NCBI GenBank assembly: GCA_963841435.1 | Contig: CAWJCS010000006.1 | Span: 448,001-512,000, forward strand | DNA from: an uncultured delta proteobacterium | GTDB lineage: Bacteria; Myxococcota_A; Polyangia; Polyangiales; Polyangiaceae | Reading direction: 5' to 3' | DNA length: 64,000 nt | Shown: positions 18,845 through 63,790 of the stretch, in pieces | How positions within the stretch are numbered: position 1 is the first letter of the stretch | How the letters are laid out: every line of letters starts with the position of its first letter | Notes under the pieces: generated by a model | The model's input: only the letters and a program-made list of their open reading frames with translations | The model's database searches: none | Told to the model about the DNA's origin: nothing | Made by a program: the position numbers and the translations under genes

Positions 18845-18956
18845 CGTCCGCGGTTCGCCTCGCTCCCCCGCACGCAACGGTTCGCGACCGCAGCCGTCGT
18901 TGCCCGTCGTCCGTCGTCGCCCGTCGTTGCCTATCGCCCTCCGCGGTCGCTCGTCG

Positions 18957-19115
18957 TCGCCCGTCGCCCGTCGCCCGTCGCCGCCCGCGGTCGCCCGTCG
19001 CCCGTCGCCGCCCGCGGTCGCCCGTCGCCCGTCGCCGCCCGCGGTCGCCCGTCGCCCGTCGCCCGTCGCCCGTCGCCCGTCGCCCGTCGCCCGTCGCCCG
19101 TCGCCCGTCGCCCGT
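18957..19115. repeat. Heptamer (TCGCCCG) array: three 27-bp higher-order units followed by ten pure heptamers
   Basis: tcgcccgtcgcccgtcgccgcccgcgg at 18964, 18991 and 19018; (tcgcccg)x10 from 19045. Confidence 0.95.
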
Positions 19116-19156
19116 CCGGCCCCACCCGTCCACCACCACTTGCGGGCGCACATCGC

Positions 19157-19561
19157 AGCGTCGCGCCAGCGTCCGTCCACGGACCGAGCGTCGCGCCAGC
19201 GTCCGTCCACGGACCGAGCGTCGCGCCAGCGTCCGTCCACGGACCGAGCGTCGCGCCAGCGTCCGTCCACGGACCGAGCGTCGCGCCAGCGTCCGTCCAC
19301 GGACCGAGCGTCGCGCCAGCGTCCGTCCACGGACCGAGCGTCGCGCCAGCGTCCGTCCACGGACCGAGCGTCGCGCCAGCGTCCGTCCACGGACCGAGCG
19401 TCGCGCCAGCGTCCGTCCACGGACCGAGCGTCGCGCCAGCGTCCGTCCACGGACCCAGCGTCGCGCCAGCGTCCGTCCACGGACCGAGCGTCGCGCCAGC
19501 GTCCGTCCACGGACCCAGCGTCGCGCCAGCGTCCGTCCACGGACCCAGCGTCGCGCCAGCG
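19157..19561. repeat. 30-bp tandem array, 13 full units plus a partial unit, each with a hairpin
   Basis: Unit agcgtcgcgccagcgtccgtccacggaccS; internal inverted repeat GTCCGT-cc-ACGGAC; no unique spacers. Confidence 0.97.
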
Positions 19562-19571
19562 CCCTCTTGCA

Positions 19572-19600
19572 CGCAATTCATATATATGCTAATTCAAGTT
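19572..19600 (+). promoter_or_regulatory. AT-rich patch, probable promoter region of the HUH transposase gene
   Basis: caattcatatatatgctaattcaagtt in very GC-rich surroundings, immediately upstream of the CDS. Confidence 0.45.
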
Positions 19601-20404
19601 GTGGTCTTCGCCAGCGCAAGAAACCGCTCGCCGGCTCGGCATCGTTCCAGCCAGCGCAAGAAGGCGTCACGCGGCGCCGAGCGCCAGCTCCCGTTGGCGT
19701 TTCGCACGTGGGGCGGCGCGCGCCGTGGCGCCGGCCGGCCGCCGAACGGCTCGAGCGCCGGCGTTTCGCACCTGGCGCGGCCTGCGCTGTCGCGTCACCA
19801 TCCCGTGCACGCCACGCTGCGGCTGCGCGCGGGTATCCCGTCGTTGCGAGGCACGGCGTTGTACGGCGCCGTGCGCGGCGCGCTTGCGGCGGGGCGCGAG
19901 CGGTTCGGCTTCCGGCTCGTGCACTACTCGGTCCAGAGCAACCACTTGCACCTCATCGTGGAAGCGGGCGACCGTCGCGCGCTGGCGCGTGGCATGCAGG
20001 GCCTCACGATCCGCATCGCCCGCGCCGTCAATCGACGGCTCGGGCGCACAGGGGGCATCTTCGGGGACCGCTATCACGCTCGTGCTCTCGGCACGCCGCG
20101 CGCCGTCCGCCACGCGCTCGCGTACGTCCTTTTGAATGCTTCCAAGCATGGTGGTGCTCGCGCGGTTCCGGCCGGCTTTTTGGACCCGTGCTCCTCCGCT
20201 GCATGGTTCGAGGGATGGAACCGCCCGAGAGCCCTGATCTTCGGCACGGAAGCGGTCGGTCGCACCGCGGGCGGCGGCGCGTCGCTGCGAGCCGCGCCGC
20301 CCGTGGTCGCGGCACGCACCTGGTTGCTCAGAGTTGGCTATCGGCGCGCGGGCCCCGTCGATCCTGACGCGATGGTTCCCGCGTCGCCACGGGCATCGCC
20401 GTAG
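19586..20404 (+). mobile_element. Y1 HUH endonuclease, REP-associated tyrosine transposase (RAYT/TnpA-REP)-like
   Basis: HPVHATLR, HYSVQSNHLHLIVEA (HUH), DRYHAR, LAYVLLNASKH (catalytic Tyr), DPCSSAAWF; no tnpB; flanked by repeats. Alternative start GTG 19601. Confidence 0.88.
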
Positions 20405-20512
20405 CCACTCGCAACGCCGCCCGCGTCGCCACGGGCATCGCCGTAGCCACTCGCAACGCCGCCCGCGTCGCCACGGGCATCGCCGTAGCCACTCGCAACG
20501 CCGCCCGCGTCG
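20378..20512. repeat. 42-bp tandem repeat x3, starting inside the RAYT 3' end and containing GTAG
   Basis: gcgtcgccacgggcatcgccgtagccactcgcaacgccgccc at 20381, 20423 and 20465. Confidence 0.95.
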
Positions 20513-20789
20513 GCGCCGGCGCCCACGCGCTCGGTCGCGGCGGGTAGCCGCGCTGGCGCTTCGCTACCGGACTTCGCGGCACGTCACGCCCCGCACGTCC
20601 CGCACGTCCCGCACGCCCCGCACGCCCCGGAGCCGGGCTATGCTCCGGACGATGTGCGCCCTCGCCGCAGCGTCGCGACTCCCTCGCCTCCAAGCGCTGC
20701 GCGCGGCGCTACGACGTTGCCTGCAAGCGCTCCCTGCGGCGCAGCAAGCGCTCCCCGCGGTCCCGCGACGTTGCCTGCAAGCGCTCCGC

Positions 20790-21460
20790 ACGTCGCCGTG
20801 CCCCCCGCGCCCGCAAGCCGCCCAACGCGCGTCGCCGTGCCCCCCGCGCGCGCAAGCCGCCCAACGCACGTCGCCGTGCCCGCCGTGCCCGCAAGCCGCC
20901 CAACGCGCGATCGCCGCGCCCGCAAGCCGCCCAACGCGCGTCGCCGTGCCCCCCGCGCCCCCAAGCCGCCCAACGCGCGTCGCCGTGCCCCCCGCGCGCG
21001 CAAGCCGCCCAACGCGCGTCGCCGTGCCCGCCGTGCCCGCCGTGCCCGCAAGCCGCCCGACGCGCGTCGCCGTGCCCCCCGCGCCCGCAAGCCGCCCAAC
21101 GCGCGTCGCCGTGCCCGCCGCGCCCGCAAGCCGCCCAACGCACGTCGCCGTGCCCGCCGTGCCCGCCGCGCCCGCAAGCCGCCCAACGCGCGACGCCGCG
21201 CCCGCAAGCCGCCCAACACGCGTCGCCGTGCCCCCCGCGCCCGCAAGCCGCCCAACGCGCGTCGCCGTGCCCCCCGCGCCCGCAAGCCGCCCAACGCGCG
21301 TCGCCGTGCCCCCCGCGCGCGCAAGCCGCCCGACGCGCGTCGCCGTGCCCGCCGTGCCCGCCGCGCCCGCAAGCCGCCCAAGCGCCGCGTCGCCGTGCCC
21401 GCCGCGCCCGCAAGCCGCCCAACGCGCGTCGCCGTGCCCCCCGCGCCCGCAAGGCGCCCG
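20790..21460. repeat. Degenerate ~39-bp tandem array (17 anchors) with modular 9-bp length variants
   Basis: gcaagccgcccaacgcgcgtcgccgtgccccccgcgccc; spacings mostly 39, also 48, 30, 31 and 41. Confidence 0.93.
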
Positions 21461-22001
21461 ACGGCGCGCCACGCTCGGGCTACTCGCCCTCGCCGCGCTG
21501 CCGCTCGCCTGCCAGGGCGACCCCAAGGCGTCGTCGTCGCTCACGGTGAACGACACCGATGCCGGCGTCGCGCTCAGCGCCGCGTGGCACTACCGGAGCT
21601 TCGAAGTCAACGTCAACCTCACGCTCACGACGCACGAAGCCGACGACACGTGCACGACCACGGCGCACCTGCGCGTCAACGACGCCCTGAGCGGGGCCGA
21701 CGACTACAATCTTCCCGCGACCGACTGCACGGTGCTCCGTCTCGGCGCCGACGGCGACATCGTCATGGACGCGGCCCCCACGGGCCACGACTGGACCCAC
21801 GAACAGCTCAGTGTCAACACGGGACGCGAAATCATCTCGCTCGGCCCCGTTTCGCTCGCCGATCCCGACACGGGCGACCCCGTGAGCATCACGTTCACGA
21901 TCGCGGCGCCGCCCTGCGGCGACGGCACCGACTGCGACTGTGGCGTGCTCCGCCGCACGGGCGGCACGGCGCACAGCCTCTCGCTCGGCCGCAAATGCTA
22001 G
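21434..22001 (+). CDS. Putative Cys-containing lipoprotein (start unresolved; 5' end merges into the repeat array)
   Basis: RRRATLGLLALAALPLAC signal/lipobox followed by a Thr/Asp-rich domain with coding-like codon bias; corresponds to the C-terminal part of ORF 20334..22001. Confidence 0.65.
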
Positions 22002-22004
22002 CGA

Positions 22005-22120
22005 CCCCGCGGGTGGGGCTGCCCCCGACCCGCCGGTGCTCGGCCTTCGGCCTGCGCGCCGTCAACCACCCCCAAACCGCGTGCTCGGCCTCCGGCCTGC
22101 GCGCGCGGAGGGGGTGGTAC
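22005..22120. repeat. REP-like palindromic element / bidirectional terminator between convergent genes
   Basis: gtgctcggcctYcggcctgcgcgc x2; long stem ccaccccc...ccgcg...cgcgg...gggggtgg; ggggctgccccc. Confidence 0.7.
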
Positions 22121-31210: not shown

Positions 31211-31302
31211 AGGCGCTCTGGGACCTGCCCTCCGCGCTCCAGCCGCACGCCGCGCTTGCTGCTTGAACACCGGTGCCGCTCGGGACAAGCTCGCTCTCGA
31301 CG

Positions 31303-32001
<699 letters not shown>

Positions 32002-39946: not shown

Positions 39947-41462
<1,516 letters not shown>

Positions 41463-52836: not shown

Positions 52837-53262
52837 ACGGCCACCTTTCTGCTCTGTCGCATCGGGGCTCGTGTCTGCGGCCTGCCGCTCGACCACGTCC
52901 GCGAGGTGATGCGTGCGCTCCCCATCGAGCGCGTCGCGGGTGTGCCAAGCTTCGTGCTTGGCGTGAGCGTCGTGAGGGGCGAGCCGTGTCCGGTCGTCAA
53001 CGCAGCCGCGTTGCTCGGCGGCGACGCCCGCTCGGGCGCTCGGCTCGTGTCGCTCCGTGTCGCCGAGCGCAGCGTGGCGTTGCGGGTCGACGCCGTGCTC
53101 GGGACGCGGAGCGTTCCGGACGCCGTGCTCGGCAGCGTGGCGCCGCTCCTTTCGGGCGCACCCGGCCGCGACGCGCTCGGCGCACTCGACGGCCAGCTGC
53201 TCGAGATCCTGGATCTCGCGCGCCTTCTCCCCGTGGAGCAAGCGGCGGAGCTCATGCCTTGA
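52837..53262 (+). CDS. cheW: CheW adaptor (apparent ACG at the start position)
   Basis: FLLCRIGARVCGLPLDHVREVMR...FVLGVSVVRGEPCPVV...VALRVDAVLG; homology extends upstream of the called GTG at 52906. Confidence 0.88.
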   Translation, partial: TATFLLCRIGARVCGLPLDHVREVMRALPIERVAGVPSFVLGVSVVRGEPCPVVNAAALLGGDARSGARLVSLRVAERSVALRVDAVLGTRSVPDAVLGSVAPLLSGAPGRDALGALDGQLLEILDLARLLPVEQAAELMP

Positions 53263-54725
53263 GCGCGCCTTCCGATCCCATCGCCCAGCGGCTGGGAGCG
53301 GCTGTCGAGAAGCGCCTTGGGGTTTCGCTCGACGCGCGCGGGTTGTGCGACCTCGTGGAGCGGCTGTATGCCACGCGTGGTATCGCCGCAGCCGACGCGC
53401 TCGTCGCAGGCCTCGAGAGCGGGGGCGAGCGCGAGCTCTTGGAGCTCGTCCCCACGCTTACAGTGGGGGAAACCTACTTTTTTCGTCACCGGGCTCAGTT
53501 CGACGCGCTAGCTTCGCTGGTCGCCCGGGGCGAGCTCGGCAAGCTTCGCCTGAGCTGTCTCAGTGCGGCTTGCGCTTCGGGCGAGGAGCCCTATTCGCTG
53601 GCCATGGTCCTCGACGAGCTCGGTGGGGCCGCGGCCCGGGGCGCGACGATCGCGGCGTTCGACGTGAACCCGGTGGCGCTCGAGCGGGCGCGGACCCGTC
53701 GTTATGCCGCGTGGTCGTTGCGCGAGACCAGCGCCGAGGCGAAGCGGCGCTGGTTCGCGGCGACGGGCGGAGGCTTCGAGATCTCTCCGGTCATCGCGGA
53801 ATCGGTCACGTTCGTCGAGGGCAATTTAACGGTGGACGACGACGAGCTGTTTCGGGAGGGCGCCTACGACGTCGTGTTCTGTCGCAACGTGCTCATGTAT
53901 TTCACGCGCGAGCAGGCCGCGCGGGCAGTCGCGCGCATCGCGCGAAGCCTCGTGCCCGGGGGCTATCTGTTCCTCGGGCACGCAGAGACCTTGCGGGGCC
54001 TGAGCCACGACTATCAGCTCTGCCACGCCGACGGCGCCTTCTACTATCGCCGCAGAGGGAGCGCCCTGCAGCCGGCGCCCGAAACGGCCGGCCCCGGCGT
54101 GCGGGACGTGTGGACGCTGCCATCGAGCGATTGGGTCGAGGCCATCGGCGACGCAACGCGTCGCATCGAGGCCCTGTCGGCCTCCACGCCGCCGGGGTCG
54201 GCCATGGCGGGCGCTCGGCAAGCCGATCTGAGCGAGCCCCTGCGGCTGCTCGGCGAGGAACGCTTCGAGGAAGCGCTCGGGCTGCTCGGGTCCCCGGGCC
54301 ATCGTGCGGCGGCCAGCGATCCCGAGCACCGCCTGCTCGAGGCCGCGCTCTACGTGCAGACCGGCCGGCTCCATGACGCCGAGCGCGCCTGCGAGGCACT
54401 CCTTTCGCTCGACGGTCTAGACGGCGAGGTCTACCACCTGCTCGGTCTGTGCCACGAGGGTAGGGGGCGAGTGCCGGCGGCGCTCGAGGCGTACCGGATG
54501 GCCGCGCACCTGGCGCCGACGTTCTCGCTGCCCCGCTTTCAGCTCGGCCTACTGCTCAGGCGTTGGGGGGAAGCGGGCCCCGCGCGGGAGGCGCTTTCCG
54601 AGGCCCGAGCGCTGCTCGAACGCGAGGACGCATCGCGCATTCTTTTGTTCGGGGGCGGCTTCGGGCGTGCGGCCCTACTCGCTTGCTGCAACGCGGAGCT
54701 CGCGGCGCTCGAGGCGAGATCATGA
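53259..54725 (+). CDS. cheR: CheR methyltransferase with C-terminal TPR (WspC-like)
   Basis: TVGETYFFR, SAACASGEEPYSLA, DVVFCRNVLMYF, GGYLFLGHAE, TPR repeats; TTG start overlaps the cheW stop. Confidence 0.95.
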   Translation: MSAPSDPIAQRLGAAVEKRLGVSLDARGLCDLVERLYATRGIAAADALVAGLESGGERELLELVPTLTVGETYFFRHRAQFDALASLVARGELGKLRLSCLSAACASGEEPYSLAMVLDELGGAAARGATIAAFDVNPVALERARTRRYAAWSLRETSAEAKRRWFAATGGGFEISPVIAESVTFVEGNLTVDDDELFREGAYDVVFCRNVLMYFTREQAARAVARIARSLVPGGYLFLGHAETLRGLSHDYQLCHADGAFYYRRRGSALQPAPETAGPGVRDVWTLPSSDWVEAIGDATRRIEALSASTPPGSAMAGARQADLSEPLRLLGEERFEEALGLLGSPGHRAAASDPEHRLLEAALYVQTGRLHDAERACEALLSLDGLDGEVYHLLGLCHEGRGRVPAALEAYRMAAHLAPTFSLPRFQLGLLLRRWGEAGPAREALSEARALLEREDASRILLFGGGFGRAALLACCNAELAALEARS

Positions 54726-55240
54726 GCGAGCACGACGACGACCGCTTGCGAGTGCTGCGCGAAACGTTCGATCGCTCCTTCGCGGAGCCCTATTTCGGCA
54801 CGGTGAAACGGACCGCGCCGCTGCTCGAGGTGCGCGTCGCGGAGTCACCGTACGCCCTCGATCTCGCCGAAATCGGTGCCGTGGTCGCGGGCATCTCGCC
54901 CACTCCGGTGCCGAGCGACGAGCCAGCGTTGTTGGGCGTCGTCGGCGTCTCGGGCGAGCTCATCGCGGTTTACGACCTGTCGCGCGTGCTAGGCCACGAG
55001 GGGTCGCGCCCGCCGCGCTGGCTCGCGCGCGTGCGCGGGCAGCCCGTGGCGTTCGCGTTCGACGCTCTCGACGGGCACAGCCAGCTGCCACCCGGGGTGC
55101 TCCTCGAGCCCGCAGCCGAAGGGGCGGACGCGCTGCCGGAGCTCGTGTGGCTGTCTGGCCTTTCGCGTCCCTTGATTCGACTTTCCGTGCTGGCCGCTCG
55201 GCTTCGGCGGCGGCTCACCCCGAGAGAGGAAGCGTTGTGA
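54722..55240 (+). CDS. cheW: Second CheW-domain protein
   Basis: [37 protein letters not shown]. Confidence 0.88.
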
Positions 55241-55241
55241 C

Positions 55242-56708
55242 ATGAAGAACGAGTGGAGCTTCGGCAGGAAGATCGGCGTCGGATTTGCGCTTGCGGTGGC
55301 GCTCACGGTGGCCGTGGGCTGGATCGGCGCGTACGCCCTGCGTCGCGTCGTCAACGCCAAGGACCGCGTTCTGTCTCGCACGGCGACGGCACTCGTCGAC
55401 GGCCAGCGCTTCGAAGCCAACGTCGAGGCCGAAGTGTCGGCGATTCGTGGCTACGCGCTCACACGGGAGCCGCACTATCTCGAGGAATGGTCGAGCGTGC
55501 GTGCCGAGGCGCTCAAGATCATGGGACACTTGCGCGCTGGCGCGACGCAGCGCGCGGCGCTCGCCGAAGACGTTGCGAGGGCCGAGGAGGACTATTTTCA
55601 CGCGCAGCAGGCGCTCGTGGAGCTCGTCAAGCGTGGTGGGTCGCCCGCAGAAATCTCGCAGTCACTCGTCTCCGATCTACGGCCCGGCCGCCGTCAGCTG
55701 CGGACGGCCGTCGATGCCCTCGTGAGCGCCGAGGAGCAGGCCCTGAAGGTCGAGACCCAGGAAGGCACGCGGATTGCGAGCTCGGCCATCGAGCAGGTCG
55801 TGATGCTCACCGCATTCGTGGGGTTGCTCGCAGCCGTGGTCGCCGCCCTCCTGGTTCGCACGCTCAGCCGGCAGATCGGCTCGGCCGTCGGACAGGTGCA
55901 AAGTTCCTCGGCCGAGCTCCAGGCCGCCGCCAACCAGCAGGCGGCGAGCTCGCGCGAGCAGTCGACGGCCATGGCCGAGATCACGACCACGATCAGCGAG
56001 CTTTTGGCCACCTCACGTCAGATCGCCGAGAGCTCGCAGCGAGTAGCGCAGATGGCGGCACAGACGGCGGGCTCCGCTCGCTCGGGCGACGAAACTGTGG
56101 CGCGCGCTCGTGAGTCCATCGCGGGCATTCAGCGCCAGGTGGAGCTCGTCGTGGGGCACATGCTCGATCTCGGCAAGAAATCGCAGCAGATCGGGGTCGT
56201 GCTCGACATCGTCTCCGAGCTCGCCGAGCAGACCAACATCCTCGCCATCAACGCCACCATCGAGGCGACCGGCGCGGGTGACGCCGGACGCCGCTTCGGC
56301 GTCGTGGCCGACGAGATCCGCAAGCTTGCCGACCGAGTCGCCGGCTCGACGAAGGAGATCCGCAGGCTCATCGAGGAGGTGCGCAGCGCCGTCAACACCA
56401 CCGTCATGGTCACCGAGACGGGTTCCAAAGCCGTCGATGCCGGCACGCGCCAGTTCGGTGACGTCACGACCGCGCTCCGCCAGATCGGCGGGCTCGTCTC
56501 GAGCACGACGGATGCCGCGCGCGAAATCGAGCTCTCCACGAAGCAGCAGAGTACGGCCGTCGAGCAGGTCAACGTCGCGATCGCCAACGTCGCCCAGGCG
56601 TCGAAGGAATCCGAAGTGAGCTCGGCGCAAACGCTGCAGACCGCGTCGCAGCTCGCGACGCTTTCCAAGGATTTGTTGCGCTTGATTCGGCCCGACAAGG
56701 CGGCTTGA
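55242..56708 (+). CDS. Methyl-accepting chemotaxis protein with periplasmic CHASE3-like sensor
   Basis: Two TMs; [42 protein letters not shown]. Confidence 0.96.
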
Positions 56709-58732
56709 TGCCGAACGACGACCCGTTCAAGTACTTTCGCGTCGAGGCGGTGGAGCTCACCGAGCTATTGACTCAGGGCGCCGCGGCGCTCGAGCAGGGC
56801 CTGGTGCCGCCGGCCGGCGTGGCCGCGCTCTTGCGCCACGCCCACACGCTCAAGGGAGCGGCACGCGTCGTGAAGCAGCCTGAAATCGGCGACCAGGCGC
56901 ACGCCATCGAGGATTTGCTCTCGCCGTACCGCGCGCCCGGGGCGCAGCCGCCGGTCGAGTGCGGGCGGGCGTTGCTCGAGCGTCTCGCGGCCATCCGGGC
57001 GCTGCTCGCGTCGCTGGGCGCGCCGATCGAGCGGCGGAACGCCAAACCTTCGGTTGCCGACGACCTTCGCACGCTGCGCCTCGACGTGAAGGAGATCGAA
57101 GCGGTCGTCGAGAGCGTCGCCGAGGCGCTCGCCGAGCTCGAGCCGTTGCGCGAGGCGCTGCCCGTGCTCGACGACACCAAGAAGCTCAGCGCGTTGCTCG
57201 GTCGGCAGCTCGACGCCGCTCGTTCCGACGATGCGCGGCGCGTCGCGGGTGCGCGCTCGATTGCCGGCAATCTCGAACAGGGCCTGGGCAAGGTCGAGCG
57301 GATCGTTCGGTCCGGGTTCGAGCGGCTCGAGCGCGCGCTCGAGCAGACGCACGTGCGCGCGGAGCGCCTGCGCCTCATTCCCGTCGAGCGGCTTTTCGAA
57401 GTGCTCGAGAGCGCGGGGCGCGAGGCGGCGGCCGAGCTTGGTCTCGAGCTCGTCTTCGAACGCTCGGGCGACGACCTCAGGGTCAACGCGCACGCCCTTG
57501 GCGTCGCCCAGCGCGCGCTGCTCCACGTCGTTCGCAACGTGGTGGCGCACGGCATCGAGCCTCCGGCCGAGCGCGTTGCCGCCGGCAAGCCGCGCGCGGG
57601 CTCGGTGCGGCTCGGTGTGAGGCGAGATCGACGCCAGGTCGTGTTCAGCTGTCGCGACGACGGTCGAGGGCTCGACACCTCGGCGGTTCGGCGCGCGCTG
57701 GAGGCGGCGGGCGTCCACGTCGGCGGCCTCGGCGAGGCTGCCCTGCTCGAACGTCTGCTGGAGAGCGGGGTCTCGACCGCGACCGGTATCACGGGGCTTT
57801 CCGGCCGAGGCCTGGGCCTCGACGTCGTGCGCGACGCAGCGGAGACGCTCGGCGGTTCCGCCCGGCTCTTCACCGAGCGCGGTCGAGGTTTCGGGGTCGA
57901 GCTCAGACTGCCAATCACGGCGCTCTCCATCCCCGGCTTGGCCGTCGAGTGCGAGGGTCGCGTGCTCACCGTTCCGCTCCACGCCGTGCTCGAATGCGCG
58001 CGCCTGCGCCGCGATGAGATTTCGCATGGTGCCGAGGGAGACCAGGTGGCGTACGCGGGGACCCCCGTCCCTTTTGCGCCGCTTTCACGCGTGCTCGGGG
58101 CCACGCCGGGCTCACAGCGCGACGCCTGGGCCGCGCTCTTCGTCCGCGGAGACGGAGGGACGGCGGCCGTCGGCGTCGATCGCCTGCTCGGTCCGCGCAA
58201 CGTCGCCCTGCAGCTATTGCCCGAAGTGGCGCGCGCGAGCAACGTCGTGGCCGGAGCGTCGCTCGACGCGCTCGGCCAGCCCGAGCTCGTGCTCGATCCG
58301 GACGGCCTCGTCGCCAGGATCCGTCGTTCGGCGCACCGCGAGGTCACGCGTCGCGCGCCACGCCGGGTGGTGCTGGTCATCGACGACTCGCTGACGACGC
58401 GCATGCTCGAGCAGAGCATTCTCGAATCGGCGGGCTATGACGTAGACCTCGCCACCTCCGCCGAGGAAGCGCTCGAGCACGCCGACCCCGAGCGCCACGC
58501 GCTGTTTCTGGTCAACGTCGAGATGCCGGGCATCGACGGTTTCACGTTCGTCGAGCGGATCCGCAACGATCCCCGGCTCGGCCGCATCCCGGCCGTGCTC
58601 GTGAGCTCACGCGCCGCTCCCGAGGATCTGGCGCGCGGCAAGGCTCTGGGTGCAGCGGGGTACATGGTCAAGGACCGCTTCGACCAGAAGGAGCTGCTTT
58701 CACTGATCGCGCGACTCGTGGGGCCCGCATGA
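56708..58732 (+). CDS. cheA: Hybrid CheA (Hpt-kinase-CheW-REC, WspE-like); receiver has Asn at the phosphoacceptor site
   Basis: AHTLKGAAR, RNVVAHGIE, DDGRG, SGRGLGLDVV, IDDS...FLVNVEMPG. Confidence 0.95.
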   Translation: MPNDDPFKYFRVEAVELTELLTQGAAALEQGLVPPAGVAALLRHAHTLKGAARVVKQPEIGDQAHAIEDLLSPYRAPGAQPPVECGRALLERLAAIRALLASLGAPIERRNAKPSVADDLRTLRLDVKEIEAVVESVAEALAELEPLREALPVLDDTKKLSALLGRQLDAARSDDARRVAGARSIAGNLEQGLGKVERIVRSGFERLERALEQTHVRAERLRLIPVERLFEVLESAGREAAAELGLELVFERSGDDLRVNAHALGVAQRALLHVVRNVVAHGIEPPAERVAAGKPRAGSVRLGVRRDRRQVVFSCRDDGRGLDTSAVRRALEAAGVHVGGLGEAALLERLLESGVSTATGITGLSGRGLGLDVVRDAAETLGGSARLFTERGRGFGVELRLPITALSIPGLAVECEGRVLTVPLHAVLECARLRRDEISHGAEGDQVAYAGTPVPFAPLSRVLGATPGSQRDAWAALFVRGDGGTAAVGVDRLLGPRNVALQLLPEVARASNVVAGASLDALGQPELVLDPDGLVARIRRSAHREVTRRAPRRVVLVIDDSLTTRMLEQSILESAGYDVDLATSAEEALEHADPERHALFLVNVEMPGIDGFTFVERIRNDPRLGRIPAVLVSSRAAPEDLARGKALGAAGYMVKDRFDQKELLSLIARLVGPA

Positions 58733-59799
58733 GCGCGCTCAGGGTTCTCATCGTGGACGATTCGCTCACCGTGCGTTCACGGCTCGCCGAGGTGCTCGGC
58801 GCGAGCGACGACATGTGCGTCGTCGGCGCTGTCGGCGACGGCCAGAGCGCCGTCGAAGCGTGCGCGACGTTGCGCCCCGACGCCATCACCATGGACATGA
58901 TGCTGCCGGGCATGAACGGCTTGCAGGCAACCGAGCACATCATGGCGCACTTTCCCACGCCGATCCTCGTCGTGTCGTCCTCGTTCAATCGCGGCGAGCT
59001 CTTCAAGACGTACGACGCGCTCGCGGCGGGTGCGGTCAACGTGCTCGAAAAGCCGGCGGGTGACGAGCCCGAGGGCGCGTGGGAGGCTCGCCTGCTTGCG
59101 AGCTTGCGTCTCGTCTCGCGCGTCCGCGTCATCACCCACGTGCGTGCACGCCTTGGCACGCCGAGGGCGTCACCGTCACCGGTCGTGAACCTGGGCTGGG
59201 CGGGGTCGAGCCTAAGGCGTCGCGCGATCGCGCTCGGGGCTTCCACGGGCGGGCCTGCCGCGCTCGTGCGCGTCGTTGGCGCGCTGCCCCGCGAGGATCC
59301 CGTCCCCATACTGATCGTGTTGCACCTGGCAGCGCCGTTCGCGGGGGCGTTCGCCGAATGGTTCGGCGCGCAAACGCAGCGGTCGGTGCGCTACGCCGCG
59401 GGCGGCGAGCGCCTCGCCGAGCTCGACCATCAGGTGATCCTGGCGCCCCCGGATCGGCACCTCGTGGTTCGCGACGGTGCGCTCGCGCTAACGCTCGACC
59501 CGGAGCGCCACTCGTGCCGGCCGTCGGTCAACGTGCTGTTCGAGTCGCTCGCGGCCGAGCTTGGTGCGGGCGTCGCGGCCTGTCTACTCACGGGGATGGG
59601 CAAAGACGGCGCGCTCGGGCTCCTCGCCTTGCGTCGCGCGGGGTCCTTCACGCTCGCGCAAGACGAGGCCACGTCGTCGGTGTACGGCATGCCGCGCGAG
59701 GCAGCGCTGCTGGCGGCGGCCGCACGAGTGTTGTCGCTCGACGCGGTGGCGCCGGCGCTCGCGGGCTGGCTGTCGGTCGCCGCAGGCAGGGCGCGGTGA
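58729..59799 (+). CDS. cheB: Chemotaxis methylesterase CheB
   Basis: REC plus GASTGGP, VLH, LTGMGKDGA, QDEATSSVYGMP. Confidence 0.96.
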   Translation: MSALRVLIVDDSLTVRSRLAEVLGASDDMCVVGAVGDGQSAVEACATLRPDAITMDMMLPGMNGLQATEHIMAHFPTPILVVSSSFNRGELFKTYDALAAGAVNVLEKPAGDEPEGAWEARLLASLRLVSRVRVITHVRARLGTPRASPSPVVNLGWAGSSLRRRAIALGASTGGPAALVRVVGALPREDPVPILIVLHLAAPFAGAFAEWFGAQTQRSVRYAAGGERLAELDHQVILAPPDRHLVVRDGALALTLDPERHSCRPSVNVLFESLAAELGAGVAACLLTGMGKDGALGLLALRRAGSFTLAQDEATSSVYGMPREAALLAAAARVLSLDAVAPALAGWLSVAAGRAR

Positions 59800-61865
59800 T
59801 GCCGACCGTGCTCATCGTCAACGACAGTCTCACGGTGCGCATGGACCTCGTCGAGGCCTTCGAATCCGTCGGATTTCGCTGTCTGGGCTGCGGCACCGTG
59901 CGCGAGGCGACGGAATTTCTCGGGCGCGAGGCGATCGACGTCGCGGTGCTCGACGTGATGCTGCCCGACGGCGACGGCATCGAGCTCTTGGAGCGCGTAC
60001 GGGGCGGCGCAGCGGCCCGCCGCATCGTCGTGCTCATGCTCTCGAGCGAGGCCGAGGTGCGTGATCGCCTGCGCGGGCTCGCGACGGGCGCCGACGAGTA
60101 CGTCGGCAAGCCCTACGAGGCGAGCTACGTCGTTGCCCGCGCCCAGGAGCTGATGGGTGGCGCGGAAGCGGCCTCGGAGCAACCCCTCGTCTTGCTCGTG
60201 GACGACAGTGCGACATTCCGAACCGCGTTCGGTCGGGCGCTCGTCGAGGGTGGCTTTCGCCTGGTCACGGCGAGCTCGGGCGAGGAAGGCCTCCGCATCG
60301 CCGCCGCGCGCGCGCCCAACGCCATCGTCGTCGACGGCGTGTTGCCCGGGATGGACGGCCCCACGCTGATCCGACGCGTGCGCCTCGACGGAGCGCTGCG
60401 CGGCGTGCCTTGCCTGCTCCTGTCGGGGTCGCAAGGCCCGGAGCACGAGCTCGCGGCGCTCGACTCCGGGGCCGATGCCTTCGTCAGCAAGACCGACGAC
60501 GCTCGCGTGATCCTTGCCAAGCTGCGGGCTCTCCTGCGCGCGTCCACCGAGGCCCGCGACGCGCCGCGCACGCGGAGCCTCGCGGGCCCTCGCCGCGTTC
60601 TCGTCGTCGACGACAGCGCGACTTTTCGCGAGACGATGGCGGAAGCCCTGCGGCTCGAAGGCTACGATGTCGTGCAGGTTGCCTCCGGTGAGGAAGCGCT
60701 CGAGCTCGTCGCGGTGCAGCCCGTGGACTGCGTGCTGCTCGATCTCGTGATGCCCGGTCTCGGCGGCACGGAAACCTGCCGGCGGCTCAAGCTGGCCGTG
60801 CCGTCGCGCGACATCCCCGTGCTCGTGCTCACGGCCGTCGAGGATCGATCGGTCGTCCTGGAAGTGCTCGGCGCCGGCGCGGACGATTTCATCCAGAAGT
60901 CGAGCGAGCTCGACGTGCTCAAGGCGCGTGTCCGGGCACAGCTCAGGCGCCGCCAGTTCGAGGACGAGACGCGCCGGGTGCGTGAGCAGCTGCTCCGGAG
61001 CGAAATCGACGCGGCCGAGGCACGTGCGGCCCACAAGGCCGCCGTTTCGCGCATGGCGTTTCTCGAGCGCCTCGCGGAGAAGAATCGGGAGCTCGACCAG
61101 GCCTACAAGGATCTCCAAGCGGCGCAGGCCCAGCTCGTTCAGGCAGCGAAGATGGCGTCGCTCGGCGGGCTCGTGGCGGGTATCGCGCACGAGATCAACA
61201 ACCCGTTGGCCTTCTCGCTCTCGCACCTGTCCACCGCGGAGCGCGACCTCGATGGCCTGGCGGCCTTGGTACTCGGCGCGCTCGGCGATGCCGAGCGTCC
61301 CGCTTGGGAGCGAGCACACACGCGCTTGCGCGAGATGCGCATCGGGCTCGAACGAATTGGTCAGCTGGTGCTCAAGTTGCGCACGTTCTCGCGCCTCGAC
61401 GAAGGAGCGCTCGAGCGCGTGGACATCGTCGAGAGCGTTGATTCCGTTCTCACCATCCTGCAGCACCGGCTCCGCGATCGCATCAACGTCGTGCGTCGCT
61501 TCGACGCGCCGCGCAAGCTCGATTGCTATCCTGGACCGTTGAATCAAGCCATCATGAACCTCGTCGCGAACTCCATCGACGCCATCGCCGGGCAAGGCAC
61601 CATCACCATCAGCACCGACGTGCAAGGCGACCGCTATTGCATCGCCGTGGCCGATACGGGCTCGGGCATCCTGCCCGAGCACCGCGAGCAGGTCTTCGAT
61701 CCGTTCTTCACGACCAAGCCCGTGGGGCAGGGCACGGGCCTCGGCCTCAGCATCACGTACGCCATCGTGCGTCAGCACGGCGGTGAGCTCGTCGTTTCAC
61801 AGCCGAGCACCGGCGGCACGACGATGACCATGCGCTTGCCCCTGTCGCAGGAGGGTGCGGCGTGA
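59799..61865 (+). CDS. Triple-receiver histidine kinase (REC-REC-REC-HisKA-HATPase)
   Basis: Three REC domains; [33 protein letters not shown]. Confidence 0.95.
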
Positions 61866-63790
61866 GCGCGAACGCGGCTCAGCGCGTGCTCGTCGTCGAC
61901 GACGAGCCCCAGGTGCTCGTGGCGCTCGAGGATCTCCTGCGCGACCAGTTCTTCGTGCTCACGGCCGACTCCGCCGAACGCGCTCTCGCCGTCGCACGGC
62001 GCGAGCCCGACATCGCCGTCGTCTTGACCGACCAGCGGATGCCCGGGATGAGCGGTGACGAGCTCCTCACCCAGCTCGCGGGCTCGCTACCCGCCGAGCG
62101 CATCCTGCTCACGGGGTACGCCAACGTCGCGGCCGTCGTGAGAGCCGTCAACGAAGGCCGCATCTTCGCGTACGCCACGAAGCCGTGGAACCCCGACGAC
62201 CTGCGGATCAAGGTGGCGAAGGCCGCCGAGCGCTACCGGCTCGCCACGGAGCTCACCCACGAGCGAGAGCTCTTGAATCGCGTGCTCGGTGGCATGGCCG
62301 ACGGCGTCATCGCCGCCTCCCGCAGCGGAGAGCTTTTGCTCTTCAACCTGCAAGCGGAGCGTCTGCTCGGGATCCAGGCGTCGCGGTTCGACCCGCGGAC
62401 TTGGCTCGAGGCCTGCGGCGTTCACGAGCCCGACGAACGCACGCCGCTCGATCCGGCTCGCGATCCGCTGCGCCACGCGATGGACGGACGGCCCCAGGGC
62501 GATTGCGAGATTTTCGTGAAAAATGCGCGGGTCGAGGGGGCGTTTCTTTCCGTCGCTTCGGCCGAGCTGCGCGACGAAGCGCGCGCGGTCGTCGGCGGCG
62601 TCCTCGTCTTGCGGGACATCACCGACCGAAGGCGGCTCGAGAGCGAGCTCGCCCAGGCTCATAGGGTGGAAGCCCTGGGAATGCTGGCGGGCGGCGTGGC
62701 TCACGACTTCAACAACATGCTCGCCGTGATCACGGGCCACGGGGAGCTGTTGCTCGGTGAGCTCGCCGAAGACGACGCTCGGCGGCCCGATCTCCTGCAG
62801 ATGCTGACGGGCGCGCGCCGCGCAGCGGGTCTCACGCGACAGCTGCTCACCTTCAGCCGCAAGCAGGTGCGACGGCTCGAGATCGTCAACGTGAACCAGA
62901 TCGTGGCGGGCATGCGCAGCATGCTCGAGCGGGTGATCGGGGAGGACATCGCGCTTTTCGCCGAGCTTTCGCCCGACCTGTGGCCGGTGCGTGCGGACGT
63001 GAGCCAGCTCGAGCAGGTGTTGCTCAATCTCACGGCGAATGCGCGAGACGCAATGCCGTCGGGCGGACGTTTCACGATCCAGACCGCAAACGTCGCGGCG
63101 AGCGCCGCGGGCGAGGGGCGCGTGCGCCTCGCCGTGACGGACACGGGTGTCGGCGTCGACGACCAGACGCGTCTCCGCATGTTCGAGCCGTTCTTCACGA
63201 CCAAGGAGCCCGGGCGCGGAACCGGCCTCGGCCTTGCCACGGTGCAGCGCATCGTGCAGGAGCTTCACGGCGAGCTTCGGGTCACGAGCACGGTCGGCCA
63301 GGGCACGACGTTCGTGTTGGACCTGCCAGCCGCGCCGGGCCTCACGCCGGCGGGGCTCGGCACCAGGCGATCACTTTCGCCCATTGCCGAGGGTGGCGCT
63401 TCGATCCTCGTCGTGGAGGACGAGGACGCCGTCAGGAAGGTCACGGCGCGCCTCCTGCGCCAGCGTGGCTACGCCGTGCTCGAGGCGCGGCTGCCAGGCG
63501 ACGCGCTCGAGCTTTGCGAGCGGGAAAGCACGCGCGTCAACCTGCTGCTCGCGGACGTCGTCATGCCGCAGATGGCTGGGCCCGAGCTCGCCGAGCGACT
63601 GCGGCGCATGCGCCCCGATCTGCGCGTGCTCTACGCCTCTGGTTACTCGGCATCGAGCGTCGCCGAACGCGGCGTCAACGTGCTCGGTGCTGCCTATCTC
63701 GAGAAGCCATTCTCGGCGGAAGCGCTCTACGCGGAGGTCGCCGCGGCGCTCTACGGGCCCACGAGCCTCACGCCTCGTTCCGCGCCCTGA
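61862..63790 (+). CDS. Hybrid histidine kinase REC-PAS-HisKA-HATPase-REC
   Basis: TDQRMP, PAS-like region, [23 protein letters not shown]-terminal REC ADVVMP. Confidence 0.95.

Follow-up and report, generated by a model that had tools for sequence, protein, structure and literature searches.

Asparagine codons in a Polyangiaceae chemosensory operon: probable motif-specific consensus errors at GTCGAC

A plus-strand cluster of eight chemosensory genes, extending from a CheW-like gene to a REC-PAS-histidine kinase-REC gene and located directly 3' of ftsZ, is carried in a 64,000-nucleotide stretch (the window; positions 448,001 to 512,000 of contig CAWJCS010000006.1, here contig C6) of assembly GCA_963841435.1, which represents an uncultured member of the Polyangiaceae. 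The preliminary description of this DNA noted that several proteins of the operon carry Asn, mostly encoded in the context GTC-AAC, at positions where Asp would be expected. These Asn codons are best explained, with a probability that we put at about 90%, as genome-wide, motif-specific consensus errors of the methylation-induced long-read type, a reading that the preliminary description had listed among its alternatives and that the evidence presented here favors. Some of the GTCGAC sites would have had A written in place of their fourth base, giving GTCAAC, or GTTGAC when the other strand is affected, and an in-frame GTC-GAC pair in a plus-strand gene, Val-Asp, would become Val-Asn. The operon would then encode Asp at its seven questioned positions. 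The pattern is specific to one motif, is spread over the entire genome, depends on the strand written in the FASTA file and strikes conserved acidic residues. Although the observation is correct for the letters of the file, it is best explained as something other than a biological feature of the operon.

Questioned sites in the chemosensory operon

The hexamer GTCAAC is present at window positions 52996, 57482, 58511, 59035, 59527, 59817, 62885 and 63536, CCCAAC at 60315 and GCCAAC at 62120, with all ten sites in frame in plus-strand genes; GTCGAC is present at 41023, 48730, 60606 and 61895. All of these are as the preliminary description reported them. That description also took Asp to be the family consensus at the ten sites. 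The orthologous operons of 11 same-genus genomes, together with one other-family genome and one paralogous locus, were used to examine this, with open reading frames (ORFs) paired by blastp and then aligned; CheA is only 42–46% identical to its nearest relatives. Asp proved to be the orthologue residue at seven of the ten sites where this genome has Asn (Table 1), and the expectation failed at the other three. In the first histidine kinase of the operon (HK1), N175 (60315) aligns with T, A or L and with D in none of seven orthologues. In the second kinase (HK2), N343 (62885) falls in a variable column (3 Q, 2 E, 2 D, 1 N and 1 S), and N88 (62120) is aligned in just three rows, with one D and two G.

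Among the seven supported sites, CheA N604 falls in the D57-like column of the receiver census described below (window 58514, contig C6 506514), HK1 N9 is one of eight Asn residues in the first acidic column of that census (window 59820, contig C6 507820), and CheB residue 268 is what we take to be the catalytic-triad Asp. At the CheB sites strict conservation of Asp appears to be a property of close orthologues only, at least as judged by tblastn alignment: among 79 distant metagenome homologues, residue 268 is D in 44, S in 23 and N in 2, and residue 104 is D in 44 and A in 24. These homologues come from a metagenome scan with CheB that returned 80 loci with a best identity of 61%, which served for family columns; none of the 80 loci was a contig of the same species. 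Not every GTC-AAC of the operon is in question. Among the 13 that are in frame, seven are opposite an Asp majority, one is opposite Glu (10 E of 13), two are at conserved Asn and three are in variable columns. The two conserved cases, at 56391 and 56568 in the methyl-accepting chemotaxis protein (MCP), are genuine Asn, with N in 13/13 and 12/13 orthologues, respectively.

Taken at face value, the Asn residues would indicate an operon that is degenerating or being rewired, in which the CheA receiver can no longer be phosphorylated, CheB is weakened and the receivers of the kinases are altered, and the GTCAAC context would merely reflect the usual Val-Asn codons of a GC-rich genome. GTC and AAC are indeed preferred codons, and the operon proteins carry more private substitutions (columns in which all other rows share one residue) than most relatives, 70 of 758 columns versus 5–31 in the in-genus rows. 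However, all eight operon ORFs are open, the 11–13 orthologues keep Asp, and the disappearance of important residues from separate proteins, each through an identical single-base change in one hexamer, is unlike relaxed selection. Among the 70 private changes A>V is the most frequent, with five cases, ahead of V>I, D>N, L>F and A>G with three apiece; no single class of transition predominates, and the G-to-A signature of enzymatic hypermutation is absent. This reading is considered very unlikely, and the recurrence of the same Asp-to-Asn pattern in unrelated genes, described below, also argues against it.

Genome-wide excess of GTCAAC and GTTGAC

The assembly (7.78 Mb, 6 contigs, 69% GC) contains 4316 GTCGAC, 2824 GTCAAC and 1873 GTTGAC. 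Whole-genome counts were compared with those of 18 same-genus and 12 same-order genomes, the sizes of which were rounded. The GTCAAC density of 603/Mb compares with 214–458/Mb in the 18 same-genus genomes, and the ratio (GTCAAC+GTTGAC)/GTCGAC is 1.09, versus 0.25–0.83 in the same genomes; GTCGAC itself occurs at 555/Mb, toward the low end of the genus range of 392–913/Mb. An in-frame baseline was obtained from 855 kb fetched from five relatives. The proportion GTC-AAC/(GTC-AAC+GTC-GAC) is 0.418 here against 0.21–0.32 in the five relatives, and GTT-GAC/(GTT-GAC+GTC-GAC) is 0.187 against 0.02–0.07. GTT is avoided before GAC in the relatives, while in this genome the value of 0.187 exceeds the overall GTT share of 0.134.

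The excess is also seen where the hexamer is read in the second frame. The rare Ser codon TCA makes up 0.208 of TCA+TCG within G|TCN|AC; the corresponding share is 0.025, 0.074 and 0.052 after C, A and T, and 0.021 and 0.015 before AG and AA. TCA is thus enriched in G|TCA|AC only, and the excess is independent of reading frame. Rough conversion levels are of the same order for changes that alter Asp (0.418 against a baseline of 0.25) and for the synonymous TCG-to-TCA change (0.238 against at most 0.13). By rough arithmetic, about one-fifth to one-quarter of in-frame GTC-GAC pairs in plus-strand genes would be written GTC-AAC, and with the ratio of 0.25 in the relatives taken as the true baseline, some 600–750 extra GTC-AAC pairs would be present in the 3,684 crude ORFs used for in-frame counts. 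A genome-wide scan for third-position context outliers was dominated by natural codon-context bias, and GTCAAC was outside its top rows.

Dependence on the strand of the FASTA file

Since GTCAAC is the reverse complement of GTTGAC, near-equal counts of the two are expected on one strand of a bacterial assembly. Their asymmetry here has a z of 13.9 and ranks second among 1810 hexamer pairs. The first rank is held by AAAAAA/TTTTTT and is due to two homopolymer tracts, one in which 1573 A directly adjoin 445 T (contig C2, 851351–853368) and another in which 191 T adjoin 354 A (contig C6, 1694909–1695473). In a genome of 69% GC, both tracts look like long-read assembly artefacts, and they count in favor of the error reading. 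Poly-A aside, strong asymmetry among the hexamer pairs is limited to GTCAAC/GTTGAC and overlapping words, and most other words of 5 to 8 bases that rank high for asymmetry either lie within GTCAAC or contain it. The forward fraction of GTCAAC is 0.57–0.62 in every one of the six contigs, whatever the sign of their GC skew; genes are divided about 50:50 between the strands, and the forward share of GTCAAC in the relatives is at most ~53.5%.

The same dependence is found within genes. Plus-strand genes contain 1075 GTC-AAC, compared with 770 in genes of the minus strand (Fisher p = 6e-9 against GTC-GAC), and its mirror GTT-GAC is distributed in the opposite sense, with 205 in plus-strand and 384 in minus-strand genes (p = 1e-10). 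The control pairs GTG-AAC, ATC-AAC, CTC-AAC and GCC-AAC exhibited no strand effect (p = 0.05–0.9). The preliminary description was right in tying the changes to the GTCGAC context. The dependence on the file strand is the central result of this analysis: because the excess tracks the arbitrary orientation of six contigs, no replication- or transcription-linked mutation would produce it, whereas a consensus or polishing step could.

This bears directly on the possibility that the letters record a true genome-wide mutation of GTCGAC to GTCAAC and GTTGAC, for example by deamination of 5-methylcytosine (m5C), with many changes too recent for selection to have acted. The excess is motif-specific and of the transition type, as such a process would have it. 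However, which strand of a contig is written as plus is arbitrary, and no biological process can keep to it across all six irrespective of gene strand and GC skew. Moreover, conversions that alter conserved acidic residues occur about as often as silent ones, a balance that would be possible only if purifying selection were all but absent. True mutation is accordingly regarded as highly improbable. The mechanism that the preliminary description preferred, real C-to-T deamination or a deaminase with fixation under relaxed selection in the operon, is not supported, since the excess is genome-wide and bound to the FASTA strand and D>N accounts for just 3 of the 70 private changes. RNA editing that restores Asp was also considered and set aside; it leaves the synonymous changes, the GTT-GAC excess and the FASTA-strand dependence unexplained. 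If all letters were nevertheless correct, Asn would be real at the CheA phospho-acceptor, the CheB Asp and the receiver metal-binding sites as well as at hundreds of other Val-Asp to Val-Asn changes. They would stem from very recent or ongoing deamination directed to methylated GTCGAC, or be compensated at the RNA level, and the canonical acidic residues would be missing from an entire signalling module that still functions. Very little credence is given to this outcome.

Conserved acidic residues across the genome

A receiver-domain hidden Markov model built from the alignments of this study identified 134 receiver domains in the genome. In the first acidic column Asn occurs eight times, in each case after GTC and in a plus-strand gene. 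In the phospho-acceptor column Asn occurs six times: three follow GTC, all in plus-strand genes, two follow ACC and one follows GTG. When both acidic columns are pooled, Asn is found at 11 of 46 positions after GTC and at 3 of 152 otherwise (p = 8e-6), and the 11 after GTC all lie in plus-strand genes (11 of 34 such positions, compared with 0 of 12 on the minus strand; p = 0.044). The three receivers with Asn after ACC or GTG may be genuine pseudo-receivers, and to this extent they favor real Asn; the GTC-preceded cases, all in plus-strand genes, do not.

A broader comparison gives the same picture. The 645 ORFs of the relatives' loci were aligned to those of this genome, and 251 pairs with a median identity of 45% were kept, with pairs of less than 40% identity or fewer than 120 residues dropped and sites aligned to several relatives counted repeatedly. 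Outside the operon, the relatives have Asp where this genome has GTC-AAC in 16 of 51 aligned pairs from plus-strand genes and in 0 of 18 from minus-strand genes. For Asn opposite Asp in control contexts, the corresponding plus- and minus-strand values are 0/21 and 1/10 after GTG, 24/235 and 6/153 where another codon ending in C precedes, and 12/205 and 8/119 for the rest. One instance within the window, 21 kb 5' of the operon, is a Val-Asn pair of an OmpR-family response regulator (Table 1), where D is opposite N in all four of the PDB alignments listed.

The operon against the genome background

Within its 10,885 bases the operon contains 13 GTCAAC, no GTTGAC and seven GTCGAC. At least 13 occurrences, counting both orientations together, are found in 4.1% of 7,721 operon-sized windows of the genome, and in 0.47% when one orientation is counted. 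A comparison of hexamer counts between operon and genome, which had been proposed as a check, places the 13 GTCAAC of the operon within an excess of GTCAAC and GTTGAC that extends throughout the genome. The operon is only mildly special. It is conspicuous because it is wholly plus-strand and rich in receiver and kinase domains, which are frequent users of Val-Asp. The preliminary description contrasted it with core genes that keep GTCGAC; the hexamers cited for murE (41023) and murC (48730), and for the two survivors within the operon, are in place, but the contrast itself is not confirmed, as the operon is not depleted of GTCGAC and the pattern is genome-wide, with intact and converted sites alike found throughout.

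Avoidance of SalI-type restriction sites in an acquired island had been offered as another explanation for the loss of GTCGAC from the operon. Nothing specific speaks for it beyond the position of this genome toward the low end of the genus range for GTCGAC, and several observations contradict it: the seven GTCGAC of the operon compare with a genome mean of 6.05 at that length, the GC content of the operon (0.69–0.71) is like that of the rest of the window, along which composition is even, and orthologous operons of the same gene order are present in 11 same-genus genomes. Avoidance would also be expected to leave synonymous changes rather than Asp-to-Asn changes at conserved sites. This explanation is scarcely credible.

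Reads, methylases and points against the error reading

One public soil-metagenome run (Logan contigs) matched a fraction of 0.05 of the sampled words, and no RNA match was listed. In that run, 13 of 111 pieces were at least 99% alike. The exact pieces of 151–159 bases that were listed cover 55669–55819, 60349–60507, 60852–61002 and 61033–61183, and none lies over a questioned site. A listed piece over 58497–58556 differs at 7 of 60 letters, indicating another organism; it was set aside and gives no verdict on any base.

A single C5 cytosine methylase was found in the genome (contig C2, 544769–545802 within ~544748–546000), adjacent to an HhH-GPD glycosylase, an MTaX1 protein and an Mrr_N protein. 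Its association with a glycosylase could be taken in favor of true m5C deamination, as could the existence of m5C methylases predicted for GTCGAC in other organisms (PMC11033074; bioRxiv 10.1101/2025.09.09.675021). However, the reading frame of this sole C5 methylase is interrupted as written, its two parts joining at six consecutive G, and the break may itself be a homopolymer-length error. Five N6/N4 methylase matches are also present.

Several points weigh against consensus error as the explanation. None of the exact read pieces listed spans a questioned site, so no single base is proven wrong. No cognate GTCGAC methyltransferase could be assigned among the one C5 and five N6/N4 matches; the XamI-type endonuclease family (RE_XamI) also had no match in the genome, nor in 14 control genomes, and is hence uninformative. 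The relatives used for comparison are distant (40–60% identical) and mutually related, and are not independent, and the gene calls are crude, being based on GC at third codon positions and covering 64–73% of the genome. The excess of GTC-AAC in plus-strand genes (305) is greater than the mirror excess of GTT-GAC in minus-strand genes (179), whereas a coding-blind process should yield similar numbers. Conversion in the operon, at 7 of ~14–15 Val-Asp sites, is about twice the rough genome-wide estimate; local read-strand coverage could account for the doubled share. In-frame TGA codons interrupting an ORF inside GTTGAC, with coding-like sequence to either side (4 of 4,697), are not enriched over other contexts, although this count is uninformative given the scarcity of the CGA codons from which they could arise (99 in-frame GT-CGA-C). 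Finally, read-level errors alone leave a plus-strand bias at a palindrome unexplained, and such a bias would have to arise during assembly or polishing. Consensus error nevertheless accords with what an artefact should exhibit: confinement to one motif, G-to-A/C-to-T type, dependence on the assembly strand and no filtering by selection.

Gene content and setting of the operon

The eight genes of the operon are listed in Table 1, along with the questioned sites. CheA, CheW, MCP, CheR and CheB are encoded together, each family scoring above its Pfam cut-off, and the order CheW-CheR-CheW-MCP-CheA-CheB-kinase is also found in relatives. The true operon is most likely an ordinary, intact chemosensory cluster of a type common to relatives. 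The first CheW-like ORF (CheW1) is 118 aa even from its most upstream start, and its Pfam match begins at profile position 24; homologous stop-to-stop frames in the relatives run at least ~30 residues further upstream. HK2 is located 3' of HK1 in this genome and in the locus of one relative (L029), and in most same-genus relatives the best HK2 homologue precedes the first CheW, at the 5' margin of the locus retrieved. Elsewhere in the window, positions 18900–21500 contain long tandem repeats that are open in several frames on both strands, with short peptide units repeated at least a dozen times. Five GTCAAC occur in 460 bases at 21606–22061, at the tail of the ORF 20334–22001, which follows a long GC-rich repetitive stretch.

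Table 1. Genes of the chemosensory operon, its seven probable miscalled sites and a further site in the window (window coordinates).
Feature	Coordinates	Strand	Evidence and remarks
CheW-like (CheW1), 118 aa, N-terminally short	52906..53262	+	Pfam CheW, E 5.9e-15
CheR methyltransferase with TPR tail	~53259..54725	+	Pfam CheR, E 5.9e-43; TPR families; start codon not fixed
Second CheW-like	~54713..55240	+	Pfam CheW, E 3.8e-11; start codon not fixed
Methyl-accepting chemotaxis protein (MCP)	55242..56708	+	Pfam MCPsignal, E 1.8e-36
CheA kinase, C-terminal receiver	56705..58732	+	Pfam Hpt, HATPase_c, CheW, Response_reg
CheB methylesterase and receiver	58729..59799	+	Pfam CheB_methylest, E 3e-50; Response_reg
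HK1, hybrid histidine kinase, three receivers	59796..61865	+	Pfam Response_reg x3, HisKA, HATPase_c
HK2, REC-PAS-histidine kinase-REC	61862..63790	+	Pfam Response_reg x2, PAS_4, HisKA, HATPase_c
CheW1 V31-N32	52996..53001	+	GTCAAC; orthologues 12 D, 1 N of 13; probable miscalled GTCGAC
CheA V260-N261	57482..57487	+	GTCAAC; orthologues 10 D, 3 E of 13; probable miscalled GTCGAC
CheA receiver V603-N604, phospho-acceptor column	58511..58516	+	GTCAAC; orthologues 13/13 D; probable miscalled GTCGAC
CheB receiver V103-N104	59035..59040	+	GTCAAC; orthologues 11 D, 1 E of 12; probable miscalled GTCGAC
CheB methylesterase V267-N268	59527..59532	+	GTCAAC; orthologues 11/11 D; probable miscalled GTCGAC
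HK1 first receiver V8-N9, first acidic residue	59817..59822	+	GTCAAC; orthologues 7/7 D; probable miscalled GTCGAC
HK2 second receiver V559-N560	63536..63541	+	GTCAAC; orthologues 7 D, 1 H of 8; probable miscalled GTCGAC
OmpR-family response regulator (31267-31998), Val-Asn	31726..31731	+	GTCAAC; Pfam Response_reg + Trans_reg_C

Significance and comparison with known systems

As biology the Asn codons matter little, the operon being most likely standard; their importance is for the use of the assembly. This is one of the species-representative genomes, and by rough estimate it would contain several hundred spurious Asp-to-Asn codons as well as silent GTC-to-GTT and TCG-to-TCA changes. Errors that fall on catalytic and phospho-acceptor residues would lead automated surveys to false calls of "pseudo-receiver", "dead enzyme" or "relaxed selection". 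The asymmetry between reverse-complement k-mers in a finished assembly offers a cheap, read-free detector of such motif errors, and the motif of the errors hints at GTCGAC methylation in this uncultured organism.

Methylation-induced systematic errors in nanopore data were reportedly described by Lohde et al. in 2024. Liu et al. (2024, Genome Res, PMC11610603) attribute C-to-T (C2T) and G-to-A (G2A) errors in nanopore R10.4.1 reads to bacterial modification, with the errors on one read strand only. A later preprint indicates that some motif positions show more than 50% of the alternative base, pass single-nucleotide polymorphism (SNP) filters and yield SNP-like calls (Liu et al. 2026, bioRxiv 10.64898/2026.01.14.699587). 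The changes in the present assembly share with these errors their transition type, short motif, strand dependence, restriction to part of the copies and passage into called variants, and it is this combination, of one palindromic hexamer with partial, strand-bound and coding-blind conversion, that matches the published pattern. To judge from this match, the organism probably methylates GTCGAC. The present case differs in that it consists of a finished assembly only, from which we infer the platform, the methylation of GTCGAC, the read-level pattern and the true base at each site. The uniform plus-strand bias at a palindrome is likewise a feature of this assembly and is not described in the available portions of the nanopore-error literature cited here.

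Hot spots of 5-methylcytosine deamination at methylase targets, such as the Dcm sites of E. coli, also involve C-to-T/G-to-A changes at a motif. Hot spots of that kind show no preference for one strand of a sequence file, and selection removes their products where essential residues are affected; neither property is found here.

Some receiver domains (pseudo-receivers) and atypical response regulators have no Asp at the phospho-acceptor position, and true pseudo-receivers are conserved as such among orthologues. The receivers described here resemble them in that Asn replaces the phospho-acceptor or metal-binding Asp of an otherwise normal domain. They differ from a genuine pseudo-receiver, or from a dead CheB, in that the orthologues have Asp in 13/13 cases at the CheA phospho-acceptor, 11/11 at CheB 268 and 7/7 at HK1 residue 9, and in that the Asn calls are tied to one DNA hexamer and to FASTA strand.

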